Shown here in pieces: positions 7,297-24,631 of a DNA stretch of 24,631 nucleotides. Each line of letters starts with the position of its first letter. Position 1 is the first letter of the stretch. The DNA is taken from assembly GCA_034722955.1 (NCBI GenBank), contig JAYEOM010000001.1:38987-63617 (forward strand), read 5' to 3'. The notes below the pieces were generated by a model. It made no database searches and was not told where the DNA came from. It was given only the letters and a program-made list of their open reading frames with translations. This DNA comes from Campylobacterota bacterium (GTDB lineage: Bacteria; Campylobacterota; Campylobacteria; Campylobacterales; Sulfurovaceae). A program made the position numbers and the translations under genes.

Positions 7297-8697
7297 TCAC
7301 TCATTCAGCACTCTTTTGATCTCTTCAGCTACCCTCTCTGCTCTAGTGCCCAATACGATCTGTATACTCTCTCTGTTAGGGCGTATCACTCCACTAGCAC
7401 CTAGAGTGATAAAATCCTCATCTTTGAGGCTGCTGCTATCGACTACTACCATTCTCAGACGCGTAATGCAGGCATCGGTATCTACAATATTCTCTGCACC
7501 TCCAAGTGCTGATATAAAATCTTCCGCCTCTATATATTGAGTGGTAGATTCTGCTTTTTGATCTTCTCCTGTCGTACTGTTTTGCATCTCATCAAATAGA
7601 TTTACTTTGAGGAGTTTGAGGAGTGTATATCCAGTGACAAAATAGAGAAGTCCCATAAAGAGTCCTAGGGGAAGTATAAGGATAGGTTTAGTAGCTAATT
7701 TATAGTTGATAACATAGTCTATAAAACCGGCAGAGAAGCCAAAGCCATGGTGTATATCCAAAAGTTGTGCCAGTGCCATAGATAGTCCGGCAAGAAGAGC
7801 ATGTGCTACGAATAGTATAGGGGCGACAAAGAGAAATAGGAATTCAAAAGGTTCTGTAATACCTGTCAAAAAGGAGGTCAATGCTACACCTGCCAATATA
7901 GCACCTACTTTTTTTCGTTTGGGTTTTGGGGTATGGAGATACATAGCTAGTCCCAATGCAGGCAGTCCAAACATCATCACTGGATAAAACCCTGCCATGT
8001 AGGTTCCTGCACTCTTGTCTCCTGCAAAAAAACGGGGTAGATCTCCATGTACCATGATCTCTTTGCCTGCTTTGATATATTCAAAATCACCTAGCTGAAA
8101 CCAGAAGATAGAGTTGAGAATATGGTGCAGTCCTAGTGGGATGAGCAGACGATTTAGTGTACCATAGATAAAAGTACCGACCTCTCCCAGCCCTATGATG
8201 CCTTTTGAAAAGGCATCAATAGCATCTTGAGCATATGGCCAAAAGTACCCTGCCAACACACCTACACCAATCGCAGCAATAGCAGTGATGATAGGAACAA
8301 AGCGTTTGCCTCCAAAAAATCCAAGAAATTCAGGGAGTTTGATAGAGTGAAAACGGTTATAGAGTGCTCCAGCTATCACCCCCATAATGATCCCTATGAA
8401 GACCCCCATTTTTATATCTTCATCTATAACTTGATAGACATCTTTTGCGACGAGGACACCGATCGCACCAGCTAGAGCAGCTGCTCCATCATGGTTCTTT
8501 GACAAACCATAAGCGATACCGATCCCAAAAAGCAAGTCAAGATTGCCAAAGAGAGCCTCCCCTGCAGCCTTCATAATCTCAGCAGTTTGTCCATCAAAAA
8601 TATCTCCAAAGCCAAAACGCAAAAGCAGAGCTGCCACAGGAAGGACAGCGATGGGTGTCATCAGTGCTTTACCTATTTTTTGTAAAAAATTGAGCAT
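7297..8697 (-). CDS. nagE: PTS N-acetylglucosamine-type transporter EIICB (no EIIA domain)
   Basis: LQKIGKALMTPIAVLPVAALLLR, LPEFLGFFGGKRFVPI, NRLLIPLGLHH, GITEPFEF, GFSAGFIDY (EIIC), and EIIB motif DACITRLR with the phospho-Cys. Confidence 0.88.
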   Translation of the reverse strand: MLNFLQKIGKALMTPIAVLPVAALLLRFGFGDIFDGQTAEIMKAAGEALFGNLDLLFGIGIAYGLSKNHDGAAALAGAIGVLVAKDVYQVIDEDIKMGVFIGIIMGVIAGALYNRFHSIKLPEFLGFFGGKRFVPIITAIAAIGVGVLAGYFWPYAQDAIDAFSKGIIGLGEVGTFIYGTLNRLLIPLGLHHILNSIFWFQLGDFEYIKAGKEIMVHGDLPRFFAGDKSAGTYMAGFYPVMMFGLPALGLAMYLHTPKPKRKKVGAILAGVALTSFLTGITEPFEFLFLFVAPILFVAHALLAGLSMALAQLLDIHHGFGFSAGFIDYVINYKLATKPILILPLGLFMGLLYFVTGYTLLKLLKVNLFDEMQNSTTGEDQKAESTTQYIEAEDFISALGGAENIVDTDACITRLRMVVVDSSSLKDEDFITLGASGVIRPNRESIQIVLGTRAERVAEEIKRVLNE

Positions 8698-17438: not shown

Positions 17439-17590
17439 GGTTTTTCAAAGTGTAGCGTATATACCTAAAACTCATCCTACAATTAGGGTTCAAAGCAAAT
17501 CTACGCTAAAATAGAGTATGTAGAATATCCAAGAAGAGGACTATCTATTTAGGAGTGATATCGGAGTATATCGAACTAAAAGGAGAGTGG

Positions 17591-19009
17591 ATGAGTATTT
17601 TGAAAAGTTCTGTTTTTATACTATTGGTAGCTGCAGTTATCGGTAGTTTTTATATACACAAAGATACTACACTCATAAAAGGTCAAGAGGCAGACTATAT
17701 AGGAAGTGATAGCTGCAAGCAGTGTCACAACAAAAAGCATCACAGCTGGCACCACTCAACTCATCCTAAAATATTTCAAAAATATAGTGACAGATCTCAA
17801 ATAGTAGCCGATTTCAAAAATAGACCCGATTTTGTAAAGTTTGATGAAGAGGATATAGAGGTTATAGTTGGCGGCAAGTGGGAGCAGGTATTTGCTAGGG
17901 AGATAGATGGTGAGTACTATCCGTTTCCTGCCAAATGGTTGAATCTCACAAAAGAGTGGGTACCCTACAAGACGGACAAATGGAGAGATACCCCATTGAA
18001 TCAAAAGTGCAACGGATGTCACACTACAGGACTGAATGTAAAGACAGGAGAGTTTAAAGAGTATGGAGTCTCTTGCGAATCTTGCCATGGACCAGCTAGC
18101 AGACATGTACAAAACAAGCGTATCCTAGGAGACCCGAAGTGCACTATTTGTCATAGCTCAAAGAGTCTCAAAGATGAGCTTGAAAAAGAGATGGATATAG
18201 TTGTATCGATCAAGTCAGCTGTATGTGGGCAGTGTCACAGCAGAGGGATAGAGAAGATACTAAACTCCCATGAGACACAAGTAGAGTTTAATTTCCCTAT
18301 CGAATATCTTCCTGGGCAGATGCTGAGCAAAAACTTTCAACAGACAACTCCACAGAGTGATAAAAAAGGCAAAAATTGGTGGGGCAATGGTATCTCCAAA
18401 AATAGACACCAAGAGTATGCCGACTTTGCCAAGTCAGGACATTCAAAATCTCTAAGAAATCTACGAACAAAGAGAAGAGTCGCGTGCAAAGAGCATCCCA
18501 ACGACAACTGCCTAAAGTGTCATAGTGGTGACTATATCATAGCAAAAAGACAAAAAGATAGACTAGACAATAAAAAGAGCATAACACTGCCAACTATAGA
18601 TAATGCCAAAGATAGCATAACCTGTGTTGTATGTCATCAACCCCACAAGGTAGGAGATAGCAGTATAAAGGTCTCCGACAAATGCATAGAGTGCCATACC
18701 AAAGATACAAAAACACTAAAAGAGCATAAAAAACACTACCCATGTCCCAGCCAAAAGGTCACTTGTGTTGATTGTCATATGCCAAAAATTGCCAAAACAG
18801 GAGGGAAATTCACTATAAGAAGCCATGCCTTTAGGATCATACCGCCAGAGGCAACTATAAAATACGGTATGCCCAACTCTTGTCAAAATGGATCTTGCCA
18901 TGCAGATAGATCAACAAAATGGGCAATAGATGAATATAGTAAATTTTATAAAGATAGAAATATCACAAAAAATTTGGCAAAAGAGATAAAGGGGTGGAGC
19001 AGTGAGTAA
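17591..19009 (+). CDS. Membrane-anchored or periplasmic multiheme cytochrome c (9 CxxCH + 1 CX4CH)
   Basis: AAGGAGA RBS and N-terminal hydrophobic anchor. Motifs CKQCH, CNGCH, CESCH, CTICH, CGQCH, CLKCH, CVVCH, CIECH, CVDCH and CQNGSCH. Confidence 0.93.
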   Translation: MSILKSSVFILLVAAVIGSFYIHKDTTLIKGQEADYIGSDSCKQCHNKKHHSWHHSTHPKIFQKYSDRSQIVADFKNRPDFVKFDEEDIEVIVGGKWEQVFAREIDGEYYPFPAKWLNLTKEWVPYKTDKWRDTPLNQKCNGCHTTGLNVKTGEFKEYGVSCESCHGPASRHVQNKRILGDPKCTICHSSKSLKDELEKEMDIVVSIKSAVCGQCHSRGIEKILNSHETQVEFNFPIEYLPGQMLSKNFQQTTPQSDKKGKNWWGNGISKNRHQEYADFAKSGHSKSLRNLRTKRRVACKEHPNDNCLKCHSGDYIIAKRQKDRLDNKKSITLPTIDNAKDSITCVVCHQPHKVGDSSIKVSDKCIECHTKDTKTLKEHKKHYPCPSQKVTCVDCHMPKIAKTGGKFTIRSHAFRIIPPEATIKYGMPNSCQNGSCHADRSTKWAIDEYSKFYKDRNITKNLAKEIKGWSSE

Positions 19010-20858
19010 AAAAATCATCTTTTATCGTAAAATCATCTTCAAGATATTTATCTTGATATCTCTTGTACTGTTTGGTGCATTTGGCATCAATATGATACTA
19101 ACCAATAAAATGCTAGACGAAAGGATAGAACAGAGAATTTTAAGTGATTTTGATTTGGCTTATAACACAACTAGGAACTTTATCAATCTAGTGTCTCAAA
19201 CTTCTCAAATGTGGGCAAAAGATGTAGCATCACACTCTGAACTTTTAGATTCCGATAGGGATAGGTTGAAGAGATATCTTCAAGAAAAAAAGATAGAGAT
19301 GTCTGCCGATTCTATCATACTGTTGAACGATAAAGGTGATATACTGGCACAAATAGGAAGCGAACATATCGTGGATGATTCGCTAGCATATAGAGATATC
19401 GTCCGTCAAACCATCAGAAACCAGACACAGACAACAAAAATAGCCAGAGAGAGAGAAACCTTCATACTCTACTCATCTGCTATCGTCAAAGGGGAGGGAG
19501 ATCTATCGAGAGTCCTAATGGTGGGTTATTTTATCAATGATATATTTTTGGAAAATATCAAAAATAATACTCATCTAGAGTTGGCCTTGATAGGAAATAG
19601 TGCTGTTATGAGCTCCACAAAGTGGGGATCATCACAAAATCTTGCTAAACTGCCAATATCCTATCTGCAATACCAAAATCTACTTAAAAACCCAAAATCA
19701 ACAAGCCAGACAAGATATCAAGATAGATTATATATAGTAAATGTAAGAGAGTTGACCGATAGAGAGTCTCTCACATCAGGATCTATACTGTTAGCTTATC
19801 CATATGATACTATAGCCAAAGAGAAAAGCAGACTATCTAGAAAAAAACTCTTTATCTTTTATGTGATTATATCTGTATCTTTGATCTTGATATATATAGT
19901 TGTGAGAAAATATCTAAAGACTATCAATGAGTTGACAGATGCTATAGAAGATATCTCTGCTCAAAAAACCTATAGAGATATCGATATCTATACAAAAGAT
20001 GAAATCGGACTTTTGGCATATAGCTTCAACCAAATGGGAAGTGAGCTAAATATACTGCATACCGATATGCAGCATCAGATAGAGAGTAAAACTAAAAAGC
20101 TAGATGAACTAAATAAAAATCTTGAAAAAAAGGTAGAGGAGGAGGTTGAAAAAAATCGTCAAAAAGATAAAATAATGCACTTTCAGTCTCGCTTGGCACA
20201 AATGGGAGAGATGCTATCTATGATAGCCCACCAGTGGAGACAGCCGCTCTCAGCTATCTCCTCTGCAAGTGCAGGATTGGAACTCAAGGCAGAACTAGGC
20301 AAAGCAGATAAGGATACAATCATAAAACAATCTAAAAATATAACTAAATATACACATTTTCTTAGTGAAACGATCGATGATTTTAGAAATTTCTTTAGAG
20401 CAGATAAGTGTGAAATAGAGACATCCTATAGTGATATTATCACCTCTGTATTAAGCATAACAGAGAACTCCTTAACCAATAAAAATATATCTATTATCAA
20501 AGAGTTCAATAGTGAAGATAGATTTATGACATATCCAAATGAGATAAGACAGGTGATACTCAATCTCATCAAAAATGCAGAAGATATTTTAGTAGAGAAG
20601 AGTGTAGAGGATCCTTATATAAAGATTGTAACTCACAAGAGCAACAACAAGGACATATTGGAGATCAGTGACAATGGAGGTGGAGTACCTGTAGAGATCA
20701 TAGATAAAATCTTTGATCCATACTTCTCTACAAAACTAAACAGAGATGGTACGGGATTGGGACTCTATATGTCAAAGACTATCATAGATGAGCATTGCCA
20801 TGGTGAACTAACCGTATCCAACACAAAAGATGGTGCACTGTTTAGTATCACACTATGA
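19002..20858 (+). CDS. Membrane sensor histidine kinase (TM-Cache-like-TM-HAMP-HisKA-HATPase)
   Basis: Two TM helices, HAMP DEIGLLAYSFNQM, H-box MIAHQWRQPL, NLIKNAED, DNGGG, GTGLGL. GTG start overlaps the cytochrome stop by 8 nt. Confidence 0.93.
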   Translation: MSKKIIFYRKIIFKIFILISLVLFGAFGINMILTNKMLDERIEQRILSDFDLAYNTTRNFINLVSQTSQMWAKDVASHSELLDSDRDRLKRYLQEKKIEMSADSIILLNDKGDILAQIGSEHIVDDSLAYRDIVRQTIRNQTQTTKIARERETFILYSSAIVKGEGDLSRVLMVGYFINDIFLENIKNNTHLELALIGNSAVMSSTKWGSSQNLAKLPISYLQYQNLLKNPKSTSQTRYQDRLYIVNVRELTDRESLTSGSILLAYPYDTIAKEKSRLSRKKLFIFYVIISVSLILIYIVVRKYLKTINELTDAIEDISAQKTYRDIDIYTKDEIGLLAYSFNQMGSELNILHTDMQHQIESKTKKLDELNKNLEKKVEEEVEKNRQKDKIMHFQSRLAQMGEMLSMIAHQWRQPLSAISSASAGLELKAELGKADKDTIIKQSKNITKYTHFLSETIDDFRNFFRADKCEIETSYSDIITSVLSITENSLTNKNISIIKEFNSEDRFMTYPNEIRQVILNLIKNAEDILVEKSVEDPYIKIVTHKSNNKDILEISDNGGGVPVEIIDKIFDPYFSTKLNRDGTGLGLYMSKTIIDEHCHGELTVSNTKDGALFSITL

Positions 20859-20871
20859 GGAGGTTTGTGCT

Positions 20872-20906
20872 AGGCTACCCCAAGGAGATAAGGCTACCCC
20901 AAGGAG
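20872..20906. repeat. 16-bp direct repeat, two copies (aggctaccccaaggag)
   Basis: Exact copies at 20872-20887 and 20891-20906, in the intergenic region. Confidence 0.85.
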
Positions 20907-20984
20907 GCTCAGACGCTAGTTTGATAATCTCCATTATATAACACAAATAAACAGTATGGTAGAATAGATCATTCAGGAGTCTCT

Positions 20985-22787
20985 ATGCGTGCTATTATTT
21001 ACCTATTTCTATCTCTTTCTCTTCTGCCTTTTCAAGCCAATGCAGCCAGAGAAGTTCAGTCCAACAATATAGAGAAAGAGTTGATCCAAGATCATCAGCA
21101 GGCAGCTATCGGCAACGGAGTAGATTGCAACAGAAGCAGACAGATCAATTTTACAGAGGATGATCTCTCTTGGATAGAGCAGCACCCACAAATAAACTTT
21201 ACCGGTGATCCCAACTGGTTGCCGTTTGAAGCATTTACCAAGGAGGGTAAATATATCGGTATCATTGCCGGCTTGATAGATATCATCGAGAAGAGAAGTT
21301 CACTCAAAATCAACAAAATACCCACAAAAACTTGGGAAGAGTCCATAGGTCATCTCAAAAGTGGCAAAGTCAACATGCTAACCGAGACTACCGACTCTCC
21401 ATTGGGGTCAGAATTTCTCTTTACTCAGGCTATCTTGCCCAATCCTATCGTAGTTATGATGCAGGAGGGAAATCCTTATGTACACTCACTCAGACAACTA
21501 TCTACAAAAAAAATAGCTATTATCAAAGAGTATGGATATATATTCAAAATCAAAGAGAAATACCCAGACTATGACTTTCATGAAGTAGATAATATTCAAG
21601 AGGGTCTATATGGTGTAGCAGAAGGAAAATATGATGCCATGCTGACAACGATGGCTCTAGGTAGCTACACTATGAAAAATATGCAGCTTAGCAATATCCA
21701 AGTTGTCGGCAAAACCGAGTTTAATACACAGATCGGTTTCGCTATCAGTCGTGAATATGCACCTCTAGTTGGTATCTTGAACAAGATTATCAATAGTATA
21801 GACGAACAGACAAAACAGAACATAATGGACAAATGGGTTACCCAGGAGTATATAGAGAAGATCGACTATACGCTTATCTACCGGATAGCTTTTATTGCGT
21901 TTCTGATTATCAGTGGGACACTTTTTTGGAGTTGGCGTCTCAAAAAAGAGATCCATCGTCGTACAATACTCGAAAACAAGCTTGCTCGTGTCAACAAGCA
22001 GATCACTGATTCTATTGAGTTTGCTGCGATTATTCAGCAAGCTTTCATCCCTGAAGAGAGGGAGCTTTCCCTCTTTTTTGAAGACTATTTTACTATCTGG
22101 GAACCTAGAGATATCGTAGGAGGTGATATCTATTTTTTTGATAGACTCAACGACAGAGATCAAGCACTGCTGATACTCATAGATTGCACTGGGCATGGTG
22201 TGCCAGGTGCATTTGTCACAATGCTGGTCAAAACACTAGCTCGCAATCTCCTCTCCTTTATCAACAAAGAAGATGAAGAGGTTGATCCGGCAAAACTATT
22301 GACCATCATCAATCGCTCTTTGAAGCATCTGCTCAAACAACACAATAAAAATTCTCTCTCCAATGCAGGATTGGATGGGGCCATTGTCCATATCGACAGG
22401 AGAGAGTGCAGAGTTATCTATGCCGGAGCCAATATTCCTCTTTTTTACAAAAGAGATACTACAATAACAATGATCAAAGCAGATCGGCACTCTCTGGGGT
22501 ATAAGACATCAAATACCGACTTTATGTTCAGTAACCATCAGCTCTCTTTTGATCAAACAGTGCAGTTTTATCTCACAACTGATGGCTACATCGATCAAAA
22601 TGGCGGAGAGAACGGCTTCCCTATGGGGAGAAAACCATTCAGAAGAGTGCTTGAGACCCATACAGAGGCATCTATGCAAGAGCAGAAGAGTCTCTTGGAA
22701 GAGGCACTTATGGTCTACCAAGGGGATGAAGATCGCAATGATGATATCACTGTCATTGGATTTAGATGCAAAGGGGTAAACGAATGA
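20985..22787 (+). CDS. SiaA-like membrane PP2C/SpoIIE phosphatase with a periplasmic solute-binding (family 3) sensor domain
   Basis: Signal peptide, DPNWLPFE...YIGI (PBPb), one TM, then PRDIVGGDIY, IDCTGHGVPGAF, GLDG, LTTDGYIDQNGG and RNDDITVIG. Confidence 0.88.
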   Translation: MRAIIYLFLSLSLLPFQANAAREVQSNNIEKELIQDHQQAAIGNGVDCNRSRQINFTEDDLSWIEQHPQINFTGDPNWLPFEAFTKEGKYIGIIAGLIDIIEKRSSLKINKIPTKTWEESIGHLKSGKVNMLTETTDSPLGSEFLFTQAILPNPIVVMMQEGNPYVHSLRQLSTKKIAIIKEYGYIFKIKEKYPDYDFHEVDNIQEGLYGVAEGKYDAMLTTMALGSYTMKNMQLSNIQVVGKTEFNTQIGFAISREYAPLVGILNKIINSIDEQTKQNIMDKWVTQEYIEKIDYTLIYRIAFIAFLIISGTLFWSWRLKKEIHRRTILENKLARVNKQITDSIEFAAIIQQAFIPEERELSLFFEDYFTIWEPRDIVGGDIYFFDRLNDRDQALLILIDCTGHGVPGAFVTMLVKTLARNLLSFINKEDEEVDPAKLLTIINRSLKHLLKQHNKNSLSNAGLDGAIVHIDRRECRVIYAGANIPLFYKRDTTITMIKADRHSLGYKTSNTDFMFSNHQLSFDQTVQFYLTTDGYIDQNGGENGFPMGRKPFRRVLETHTEASMQEQKSLLEEALMVYQGDEDRNDDITVIGFRCKGVNE

Positions 22788-23701
22788 AGAGTGAAAATTT
22801 GACTCTCTTGGAACGATTGGATGAGGTGATCGATTCGGAGACTATAGATGAAGCTAAAATCAGAGCGGTTTTAAAAGAGAGCCGAAAATCTATCAAGCGT
22901 TTTGATACAATCCTCAAGCAGTCCGACAAACAACTCTCGCAACAGGTACATCAACTCGAAGAGGAGTTTGAACTTAGAGTACATAGTGAACGGATACTAG
23001 CCCAGCAAGCCAAACATGCTGCTATGGGAGAGATGATGGATGCCGTAGCCCATCAGTGGAAGCAGCCACTCAATGCCATCTCTATGCTCACTGATCTACT
23101 CCTGATAGAGTACAGAGAGGGTGAAGTAGATGAGGCTTATCTTAAGAATTATAAAAAAGTTCTTTGGGAGCAGATCGATCATCTCCTCAATACCTTGACA
23201 GAGTTTCGATCCTTTTTTAGACCAGACAAAGAGAAGAGAGATTTCAATATTCGCCATGCGATTGATTCGGTTTTGCTACTCATCAAAGATGAATTTTTAA
23301 AAGAGATGATCTCCTTTATCATAGAGGGAGATGAGAGACTGGAGTTATATGGTGTAGAGAATGAGTTCAAACATATCATCCTCAATATCCTCAACAATGC
23401 CAAAGATGCCTTCAAAGAGAATGCTATCGCATCACGAAAAATCTCATTTGACATTTACCAAGAGAGCGACATGATCATCTTGGAGATTTGTGACAATGCC
23501 GGTGGCATACCTGCCTCTGTCATTGAGACTATCTTCAAGGCAAATGTCACTACCAAGGCTGAGGGGAAGGGAACAGGAATCGGACTCTATATGAGTGCAC
23601 AGATTGCAGAAAAGATGGCTGCCTCATTGACCGTGACCAACAGAGATGATGGGGCATGCTTCTCATTTAAATCCCAAAAATCTAAGGGGGGAAGAGTATG
23701 A
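22784..23701 (+). CDS. Soluble histidine kinase with short N-terminal coiled coil, 305 aa
   Basis: ATGA overlaps at both ends. H-box AVAHQWKQPL, NILNNAKDA, DNAGG, GTGIGL. No TM or sensor domain. Confidence 0.92.
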   Translation: MKSENLTLLERLDEVIDSETIDEAKIRAVLKESRKSIKRFDTILKQSDKQLSQQVHQLEEEFELRVHSERILAQQAKHAAMGEMMDAVAHQWKQPLNAISMLTDLLLIEYREGEVDEAYLKNYKKVLWEQIDHLLNTLTEFRSFFRPDKEKRDFNIRHAIDSVLLLIKDEFLKEMISFIIEGDERLELYGVENEFKHIILNILNNAKDAFKENAIASRKISFDIYQESDMIILEICDNAGGIPASVIETIFKANVTTKAEGKGTGIGLYMSAQIAEKMAASLTVTNRDDGACFSFKSQKSKGGRV

Positions 23702-24240
23702 ATATGCTCACATTTAAGGATATACTAGAGAGAGAAGGTGTACTTTTCAGTTTTAGCGGTACTGTTTCACAAAACATCTTGAGCAGTCTTGCGGAGACAC
23801 TTGAAAAAGAGTTGAATGCAACAGGTATTGCCTTTACCCTCATCCAAAATATCTTTTCTATTTTTACTGAACAGATGCAAAATATCATGAGTTACTCACA
23901 AGAGCGTATTCACCTAGGAGATAACGCTTTTGAGAGTCCCGGTATCTGCATTGTAGGGTATGATCAGGATAGAGGACACTTCTTTGTGAGCTCTGCAAAT
24001 ATCATTCATCCCGAAGATGAATCAAAACTGAGTAAAAAATTGGATAAAATCATACCTATGAAAAAGAGTGAACTCAGAGAGTACTACAAAGTATTGCGAC
24101 GAAGTGGCAGAGAGAAGCATGGCAGAGGTGCAGGTCTGGGTCTATTGGAGATGGCAAAAAAAAGTGCACTTCCAATGGAGTATGAGATTACCCACTTGGA
24201 TGAAAAGCGATCATTTTTTGAAATAAAAACCTATATCTAA
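23698..24240 (+). CDS. siaB: SiaB-family protein kinase
   Basis: FSFSGTVSQ, FSIFTEQMQNIMSYS, SANII and GAGLGLLEMAKKS motifs. Adjacent to siaC. Confidence 0.9.
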   Translation: MNMLTFKDILEREGVLFSFSGTVSQNILSSLAETLEKELNATGIAFTLIQNIFSIFTEQMQNIMSYSQERIHLGDNAFESPGICIVGYDQDRGHFFVSSANIIHPEDESKLSKKLDKIIPMKKSELREYYKVLRRSGREKHGRGAGLGLLEMAKKSALPMEYEITHLDEKRSFFEIKTYI

Positions 24241-24250
24241 CGGAGTAAAA

Positions 24251-24631
24251 ATGGAAAATTTACATATTGAAGCGACAAAATATACACCACAGATTGATCT
24301 GGATGCCAAAGCCGGCCTGCTCTGCTTTTCGGGCAAAAGCTATCCTGAAAATACCTTTGACTTCTACCAACCCACGATGAAGTGGATCCAAGAGTTTTTT
24401 GAACAAGATAGAGAGATAAAAAGCCGGCTTAAGATGGATATCATCTATTTTAACTCAAGTAGCTCCAAACTCTTTTTTGATCTTTTTGATATCATCGAAG
24501 AGGCACAAGATGCAGGAAATAGTATCACTATAGAGTGGTTCTATGATGGGGAAAATGAAAATGCTTTGGAGGCAGGCGAGGACTTTAAAGAGGATTTTGA
24601 ATCTCTCGATTTTAATCTCATAAAGAGATAA
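24251..24631 (+). CDS. siaC: SiaC-family (DUF1987) regulatory phosphoprotein
   Basis: IEATKYTP, SGKSYPEN, FYQP, YFNSSSSK, IEWFY and EAGEDFKED motifs. Confidence 0.93.
   Translation: MENLHIEATKYTPQIDLDAKAGLLCFSGKSYPENTFDFYQPTMKWIQEFFEQDREIKSRLKMDIIYFNSSSSKLFFDLFDIIEEAQDAGNSITIEWFYDGENENALEAGEDFKEDFESLDFNLIKR

Follow-up and report, generated by a model that had tools for sequence, protein, structure and literature searches.

A sensor-less histidine kinase as a putative SiaC target in a Sia-type partner-switching operon of a Campylobacterota bacterium

What does a Sia-type partner switch control when no diguanylate cyclase gene stands beside it? To our knowledge, the only enzyme known to be under SiaC control is the cyclase SiaD of Pseudomonas aeruginosa. 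The question is raised by an operon at positions 20985-24631 of a 24,631-nt stretch of Campylobacterota DNA (hereafter the window: contig JAYEOM010000001.1, 38,987-63,617, forward strand). The operon is filled by four open reading frames (ORFs) of the same strand, identified from the ORF list and Pfam, in the order phosphatase, histidine kinase (HK), siaB and siaC; neither the ORFs nor Pfam revealed a GGDEF gene in it. A first-pass annotation had given this order, with ATGA overlaps on both sides of the HK gene, and had read the locus as a sia operon rewired to a kinase that SiaC controls directly through a SiaD-like helix. The arrangement is borne out by the ORFs, the Pfam matches and the raw sequence, the HK start overlapping the phosphatase stop at 22784-22787 (cgaATGAag) and the HK stop overlapping the siaB start at 23698-23701 (gtATGAat); ATGA overlaps also occur in relatives (locus L025, 6421-6424 and 7338-7341; locus L105, 3888-3891). 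Is the kinase then an output of the switch, an input to it, or a passenger? Sequence comparisons and a structural model suggest that SiaC probably docks on this kinase and controls it.

The N-terminal module of the kinase and its association with SiaC

The HK gene (22784-23701, plus strand, with an alternative start at 22766) encodes 305 aa from the overlap ATG. Neither a Pfam sensor domain nor a hydrophobic stretch was found in the protein, which upholds its initial description as a sensor-less kinase. It is made of an N-terminal helical module, a dimerization and histidine phosphotransfer (DHp) domain with the H-box AHQWKQPL, and a catalytic and ATP-binding (CA) domain; HATPase_c scores 55.3 bits (cut-off 26.4; 1.1e-14), and HisKA 25.1 bits (1.9e-05), 1.8 under its cut-off of 26.9. 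The phospho-accepting His90 (codon 23051-23053, plus strand), located 43 residues after the motif Ser47, is invariant in 21 orthologues, as are N201/N204/N205, D237, G240-G241 and G263-L268 (N, G1 and G2 boxes). The N-terminus contains KRFDTILKQSDKQ, residues 37-50 being IKRFDTILKQSDKQ, and its positions L30, R39, I43, D48 and Q50 show little or no variation among the 21 orthologues or HK relatives. The proposed SiaC-docking helix is predicted to span residues ~25-59 (22856-22960, plus strand), with R39 FDTILKQSDKQLSQQV55 as its core. A regular expression of the motif matches only the HK and a class III cyclase in the whole genome, and is purely descriptive since it was written after both were known. 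The HK is matched by about 3,500 proteins of comparable length, many of them ~300-aa kinases of Sulfurimonadaceae and other Campylobacterota. The possibility that the HK is itself the Ser/Thr kinase of SiaC was set aside, as SiaB is present and a full DHp His box is kept in the HK.

Does this module accompany SiaC elsewhere? A PF09345 search over 401 Campylobacterota genomes, followed by extraction, gene mapping and Pfam scanning of the loci, recovered 23 SiaC genes in 22 loci of 16 genomes. A neighbour headed by the same ~75-residue module is found in 16 of the 22 loci: an HD-GYP protein in 11 loci, a sensor-less or CheX-fused HK in six, a class III cyclase in two and a PAS-GGDEF protein in one. 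No such neighbour was seen in six loci (L010, L014, L015, which is cut by a contig end, L020, L022 and L024). A profile named A2 was built from 22 sia-linked N-terminal modules, and leave-out versions of it were run on the 22,517 stop-to-stop ORFs of the window genome. With the 20 foreign modules (the genome's own two being removed), the cyclase was matched at 2.6e-16 and the HK at 2e-5, the next ORF standing at 0.054; with the 15 non-HK modules, the HK ranked second of 22,517 ORFs at 7.2e-4 (next ORF 0.024). These matches cover HK residues 10-70. Over the 401 genomes, in which related genomes are not independent, A2 gave 27 matches in 14 genomes, all within the 16 SiaC-positive ones and none in the 385 SiaC-negative ones, a co-occurrence of which only this last half is independent because A2 was built from surveyed genomes.

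A contig search centred on the HK (606 pattern matches, 452 confirmed, best 80 kept) approaches the association from the other side. The module was detected by hidden Markov model in 20 of these 80 best HKs, and a siaB, siaC or SiaA-type PP2C gene lies at most four ORFs away from 12 of the 20 (a count that includes redundancy, L063 being the contig of L016, and L099 and L102 near-copies), vs none of the 60 HKs without the module. The three "orphan" HKs with a strong motif all come from genomes that encode SiaC elsewhere (3/3). Together with the HKs of six of the 22 SiaC loci, the 12 of 20 motif-bearing relatives confirm the expectation that the HK would be conserved in sia loci.

The distance between the module and the catalytic core follows a simple rule. 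Among the 16 sensor-less HKs that are sia-linked and have an identifiable H-box, 43 residues separate the motif Ser from the H-box His in three HKs (including that of the window), 50 in one, 57 in 11 and 64 in one. All four values are 1 modulo 7, i.e. whole heptads apart. Outside sia loci, motif-bearing HKs have spacings of 36, 50, 57 and 64, only L027 departing from the series, at 40. The series fits a continuous coiled coil, its continuity being read from the spacings themselves, along which a register signal, set off at the SiaC site, would reach the DHp domain.

Another group of kinases resembles the window HK: for 30 of the 80 HKs, the gene immediately upstream is an ORF labelled glnA, with glutamine synthetase confirmed by Pfam in the three cases checked. 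These glnA-linked kinases (L066, L075, L035 and 27 further loci) are sensor-less, stand in an NtrB-like position, and carry, where it is kept, a weak motif that is heptad-phased. Those of Sulfurimonadaceae and Arcobacteraceae share with the window HK a core that is 46-57% identical, the H-box AHQWKQP and a length of ~315-317 aa, while in contrast to it the group sits beside glutamine synthetase, lacks the motif in 25 of 30 members and occupies a separate part of the core tree. In this DHp-CA tree (84 rows, unrooted, supported by the Shimodaira-Hasegawa-like approximate likelihood ratio test only), three groups stand out: one unites the window HK with L025, L026 and two sensor kinases (support 97), another gathers most of the remaining sia-linked HKs (94), and the last holds the glnA-linked HKs (85).

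How close is the module to the stalk of SiaD? In the available passages of the SiaC-SiaD structure report (PMC8457831), four SiaC molecules sit on a dimer of SiaD stalks, and SiaC Thr68 is inserted between two SiaD helices and bonded to S82 and Q86, with S50 and Q54 in a distal motif; the SiaD contact residues named are R74, K77, V78, R80, I81, S82, D83, R84, Y85, Q86, M88, R90 and D91. In the A2 profile alignment, the corresponding segments of the SiaD chain (PDB 7e6g) are RLERIARISDGFQ and RRLEKVARISDRYQQ, and the SiaD motif quoted in the first-pass annotation comes close to the real one. Against 177,635 PDB sequences, A2 places SiaD (7e6g_A) at rank 4, with an E-value of 0.15 and both binding motifs aligned. 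When modules are taken one at a time against NCBIfam, 10 of the 22 match the SiaD model NF038266 at positions ~43-96, which correspond to the SiaC-binding stalk (best E-value 3e-9), and each family other than SiaD is matched by at most two of the 22. Among the HK modules, those of L006, L012 and L016 match NF038266 at 5e-5 to 1.6e-4, and that of L008 at 0.033. In a register of our own reading, set by the SD pair, HK R39/I43/K45/S47/D48/K49 would correspond to SiaD R74/V78/R80/S82/D83/R84, and HK T42/Q46/Q50/L51/Q53/V55/H56 to SiaD K77/I81/Y85/Q86/M88/R90/D91.

The complex was modelled with two copies of HK residues 1-150 (alignment A1) and two of SiaC (alignment A3), in three runs accompanied by three controls. 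The median interaction prediction score from aligned errors (ipSAE) of this 2:2 model is 0.73 (0.80, 0.73 and 0.73), vs 0.34 for the best control; the runs share at least 82% of their contacts, and the predicted local distance difference test of the partners is at least 88. The predicted interface involves R39, T42-V55 and E59 of both HK copies and, on the SiaC side, residues 10-11, 31, 33, 35, 66-70, 72-73, 76, 104, 107-108, 111 and 115, thus including Ser69. These positions are equivalent to the SiaC-SiaD ones named in the available text of PMC8457831. With regard to the direct control of the HK by SiaC that had been put forward, the model predicts the binding step, which it supports rather than demonstrates.

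The proposed circuit and its alternatives

How would such a switch operate? We picture a partner switch of the SiaABC type, whose outputs would be set by a portable N-terminal SiaC-docking coiled coil, one copy being fused to a DHp-CA core. In the SiaA-like PP2C, the periplasmic SBP domain would sense a small ligand and set phosphatase activity, and SiaB would phosphorylate SiaC on Ser69. In its unphosphorylated state, SiaC would attach across the parallel N-terminal helices of the HK dimer at R39-V55, with two SiaC molecules per dimer and in the manner known from the SiaD stalk; phospho-SiaC would not bind the HK helix. As this helix runs in heptad register into the H-box, SiaC binding would change the balance between autophosphorylation and phosphatase activity of the HK; that the effect is an activation is a guess by analogy with SiaD. 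The HK would in turn act on a response regulator encoded outside the operon. The same SiaC would very probably dock on an HD-GYP phosphodiesterase of cyclic di-GMP (c-di-GMP) encoded just past the window, so that both His-Asp signalling and c-di-GMP breakdown would come under a single Ser/Thr switch.

This second output is suggested by what surrounds a gap in the assembly. The last three bases of the window are the siaC stop codon, and the scaffold continues with 100 N, then a convergent CHAD gene. In L105, whose HK is 85% identical, a docking-helix HD-GYP gene (269 aa) directly follows siaC, and the same holds for L025 and L026 (HK 59-60% identical; HD-GYP of 298-299 aa). The 14 codons right after the gap (L001 4619-4766 region) read EILEVRDTYKDQFE-stop, vs EEILKVRETYKDQFD-stop for the end of the L105 HD-GYP. 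Among contigs from four brine-metagenome runs of one study, one of which may have yielded the present DNA, a single contig bridges the gap with 776 letters, a length that fits such an HD-GYP gene, and those of two other runs have just 12 letters at the junction (short side 30) and may come from a strain variant that lacks the HD-GYP gene. The assembled genome holds five other HD-GYP matches, none of which carries the module. Judging from these sequences, a docking-helix HD-GYP gene most likely lies in the 100-N gap, and the pairing of a docking-helix HK with a docking-helix HD-GYP protein is found in nine of 17 distinct docking-HK loci. The term "rewired" was thus an overstatement, as relatives carry a docking-helix HD-GYP gene after siaC and the codons after the gap fit an HD-GYP C-terminus. 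Of the proposal that two-component signalling is fed instead of, or as well as, c-di-GMP synthesis, "as well as" is retained, for c-di-GMP turnover, which would here be degradation and not synthesis. The suggestion to look past 24631 for siaD or a response regulator led to neither, and to the gap followed by HD-GYP-like C-terminal codons instead.

Taken together, we incline, with a little more than even confidence, to a broader reading in which the ~75-residue helix is a portable SiaC adaptor. One Ser/Thr switch would then command at least four classes of enzymes (HK, HD-GYP, GGDEF and class III cyclase). The helix would stand in strict heptad register to the His, SiaC would be the phosphorylation-gated, detachable sensor domain of a sensor-less kinase, and His-Asp signalling and c-di-GMP breakdown would be switched at once, with strain variants that may keep the kinase arm only.

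Several observations weigh against control of the HK by SiaC, besides the partial circularity of the A2 survey mentioned above. Three unrelated coiled coils outrank SiaD in the A2 search of the PDB. The N-terminus of the window HK taken alone gives no match to NF038266, as is the case for the HK of L023, and a profile made of HKs only (A4, 20 sequences) places SiaD at rank 16 with an E-value of 2.5, behind unrelated coiled coils. Because direct similarity is not significant, the likeness between the window HK and SiaD is transitive, via sister modules: the resemblance to the SiaD helix that was initially claimed survives at the level of the sister-module profile, and does not for the kinase by itself. 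The SiaD residues S82 and Q86, which bond Thr68, correspond to S47 and L51 of the HK, the Ser being replaced by Ala in five of 21 orthologues and the Gln position being Leu in the clade. A weaker SD[KR]xQ motif is present in five of the 30 glnA-linked HKs, and SiaC was not found in two tested genomes, of unknown completeness, that have a weak-motif HK (L075, glnA-labelled, and L033, classed as "other", with a 495-aa ORF upstream), so that the motif can persist without SiaC. The success of the complex model may be memory, since a like complex (PDB 7E6G) was already solved, and the ipSAE mark, reached by 116 of 157 solved complexes and by two of 215 mismatched pairs, was calibrated otherwise than with the custom alignments and the 2:2 set-up used here. 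Lastly, the operon encodes no response regulator, and none of the ~30 REC-bearing ORFs of the genome can be assigned to the HK.

Some of these points would be explained if the HK were merely co-transcribed with the switch and free of SiaC control. The coiled coil would then be inherited from an ancestor shared with the glnA-linked NtrB-like kinases, the resemblance to SiaD would reflect composition or old ancestry, and the HK would be regulated by another partner or by nothing. The absence of significant direct similarity to SiaD (by E-value and by NF038266 alike), the better ranks of unrelated coiled coils such as KIF21A, the motif remnants in glnA-linked HKs, the SiaC-less genomes of L075 and L033, and the variation of the Ser and Gln positions in the window clade are all in keeping with such a passenger. 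We nevertheless hold it to be quite improbable, as the profile of non-HK modules singles out the window HK genome-wide, the module is absent from all 385 SiaC-less genomes searched, sia neighbours accompany 12 of the 20 motif-positive HKs and none of the 60 motif-negative ones, relatives keep the HK gene coupled by ATGA between siaA and siaB, and the predicted interface falls exactly on the motif. Could the kinase instead be an input? SiaC may dock on an HK whose phosphoryl group goes to a receiver controlling the PP2C (a REC-PP2C fusion or a stand-alone REC), in a feedback or input loop that would tune SiaC dephosphorylation. A receiver is indeed encoded in eight of the 17 distinct docking-HK loci, as a REC-PP2C fusion in L006, L016 and L023, and as a stand-alone REC of 119-127 aa beside the HK in L008, L028, L031, L038 and L041, which suggests that in those eight loci the HK feeds back on the switch; REC-PP2C-kinase fusions of Campylobacterota have moreover been proposed to be driven by an unknown HK (PMC9239204, available passages). 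In the window, such a loop appears unlikely: the phosphatase has no receiver domain, the operons of the window clade (L025, L026 and L105) contain no REC gene, and a profile of six sia-linked receivers found no clear orthologue of the stand-alone REC among the ~30 REC-bearing ORFs. It is very improbable that the module acts mainly as a SiaC sink, which would compete with the HD-GYP protein for unphosphorylated SiaC and set a threshold with little effect on the kinase. One SiaC does face two docking-helix proteins in the nine loci that pair an HK with an HD-GYP, and a 77-aa stand-alone helix in L006 demonstrates that an enzyme need not accompany the module, while the heptad phase from motif to H-box in all 16 HKs argues for mechanical coupling to the catalytic core, and all kinase boxes are conserved.

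Switch proteins, genomic context and other sia loci

The remaining three genes encode the switch itself. The phosphatase gene (20985-22787, plus strand, 600 aa) specifies a SiaA-like membrane protein with an N-terminal signal or hydrophobic segment, a periplasmic SBP_bac_3 domain (residues 73-286; 3.8e-09), one transmembrane segment (~300-320) and a SpoIIE/PP2C domain (392-595; 3.1e-21). Its PP2C part aligns with positions 401-657 of 658 of the NCBIfam SiaA model NF038263 (5.5e-69), at 233 bits, under the equivalog cut-off of 700, the N-terminal sensor being SBP_bac_3. The third protein (23698-24240, plus strand, 180 aa) is a SiaB-family Ser/Thr kinase, matching DUF6272 (PF19788) with 123 bits (7.5e-36) and NF038262 (SiaB_fam_kinase) with 162.7 bits (cut-off 85), while its score with the equivalog NF038264 is 100.8, under 225. 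The fourth (24251-24631, plus strand, 126 aa) is a SiaC-family phosphoprotein, with 140 bits for PF09345 (cut-off 24.5; 3.8e-41). Its 118 bits against the SiaC equivalog NF038265 are under the cut-off of 150, making it a family member and not an equivalog. Aligned to chains 6kko and 6k4f of P. aeruginosa SiaC, it gives an E-value of 2.3e-24, its Ser69 (codon 24455-24457, plus strand) facing the phosphorylated Thr68 of P. aeruginosa SiaC (NTSS vs NSSS), and N68 and S69 are invariant across 22 Campylobacterota SiaC sequences.

These proteins occur in other combinations elsewhere. PP2C and SiaB are fused in one protein in L016 (4370-6928, REC-REC-PAS-PP2C-SiaB, 852 aa) and in L046 (5772-10874, AAA16-GAF-PP2C-SiaB, 1700 aa). 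Sia loci are repeatedly linked to a TonB-dependent receptor and to YfiR/HmsC-like DUF4154, present as a domain or as a protein (L037, L099, L102, L106 and L010), the YfiR-like domain being fused to PP2C in L099 and L010, an association that we take to be reminiscent of the YfiBNR c-di-GMP system.

As regards transcription, the 126-bp intergenic region 5' of the phosphatase gene (20859-20984, plus strand) is likely to contain the operon start. A promoter-like site at 20938-20965 has 9/12 matches and a TG, and is weak, since 11 such sites are found in the region vs 10.3 in shuffles; the promoter and terminator scan, whose counts are not above shuffles, found no plus-strand terminator inside the operon. 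Directly upstream (17555-20858) lie a multihaem cytochrome c gene (484 aa) and a dCache-HAMP histidine kinase gene, and the sia operon of L025 is likewise preceded by a multihaem cytochrome gene (L025 2114-3793). This neighbourhood may tie the switch to respiration or redox sensing.

The same genome carries a second sia locus on contig C4 (L004 255-3713), with siaB, siaC, a class III cyclase (340 aa) and a sensor PP2C, so that the whole-genome tally is two SiaC, two SiaB, two SiaA-type PP2C and two modules. The N-terminus of this class III adenylate/guanylate cyclase has the same kind of helix, ...LKQLDKIIKMSDKQQ..., which matches the SiaD model at 3.5e-5 to 3.7e-6, and SiaC may thus also control the synthesis of cyclic AMP or cyclic GMP. 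Two proteins from other loci carry the helix in yet other settings. Directly after siaC in L009 (6053-6955), a 300-aa protein combines a docking helix with a remainder in which Pfam finds no domain, and it may be a SiaC-controlled output of unknown kind. In L006, the 77-aa ORF mentioned above (8401-8634) is a docking helix alone, located between a docking-helix PAS-GGDEF gene and a docking-helix HK gene. It matches the SiaD model at 7.7e-6, a TAA being reported inside the profile match there, and may be either a decoy for SiaC or the fragment of a gene.

Known systems and what the circuit would mean

To what extent can the window system be assimilated to SiaABCD of P. aeruginosa (PDB 7E6G; PMC8457831, available passages)? 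Common to the two are a PP2C phosphatase, a kinase of the SiaB family and a SiaC whose phospho-site position holds a hydroxyl residue, and in each the target has an N-terminal parallel coiled coil with a motif of the type R-x-x-x-[IV]-x-x-x-S-D-[KR]-x-Q, between whose two helices SiaC docks, in the window HK by prediction. In contrast, the output is here an HK (and likely an HD-GYP protein outside the window), while SiaD is a GGDEF cyclase; the HK has one motif copy instead of two, and a Leu where SiaD has Q86; the sensor of the phosphatase is a periplasmic SBP_bac_3 domain, and the phospho-site is Ser instead of Thr. The system would work in the manner of SiaABCD without being one in the strict sense, since it lacks a GGDEF output and stays under the equivalog cut-offs of SiaA, SiaB and SiaC. 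In Campylobacterota, a cluster of a periplasmic-sensor PP2C, a STAS-type Ser/Thr kinase and a STAS-like protein, found with c-di-GMP enzymes, has already been likened to SiaABCD (PMC9239204); unlike the present analysis, the available passages of that work do not mention an HK as the phosphoprotein's target, a docking motif or a cyclase output, and HKs appear there only as possible inputs of REC-PP2C proteins. In the HptB-HsbR-HsbA/HsbD and BgrSTUWV/BgrR systems, a phosphorylatable STAS-like protein binds and modulates a diguanylate cyclase (cited in the available text of PMC8457831), and two-component parts feed the partner switch, while here the partner switch would feed an HK. That proteins of the DUF1987 family modulate adjacent proteins was a general guess of the SiaC-SiaD structure authors (same passages of PMC8457831), who name neither an HK as a target nor the motif as portable. 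The passages found of a 2025 JBC article (PMC12834913) hold nothing on non-GGDEF outputs, and our literature search, whose scope was set without the supplementary tables of PMC9239204, met no paper naming an HK, HD-GYP or class III cyclase as a SiaC target via the motif.

Small proteins that act on soluble kinases have precedents. Sda and KipI bind the soluble kinase KinA and set its activity. Like the proposed SiaC, they are small proteins acting on a sensor-less HK; unlike it, they bind the DHp or CA domains and are not phospho-switched STAS-like proteins.

If the proposed control is true, a Ser/Thr partner switch feeds two-component signalling directly, in the reverse direction of HptB-HsbR-HsbA, and the input of a widespread class of sensor-less kinases would be explained. 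The module would provide a simple sequence signature for SiaC targets in any genome, and the heptad-phased linker a clean system to study how a bound protein alters the output of a kinase.

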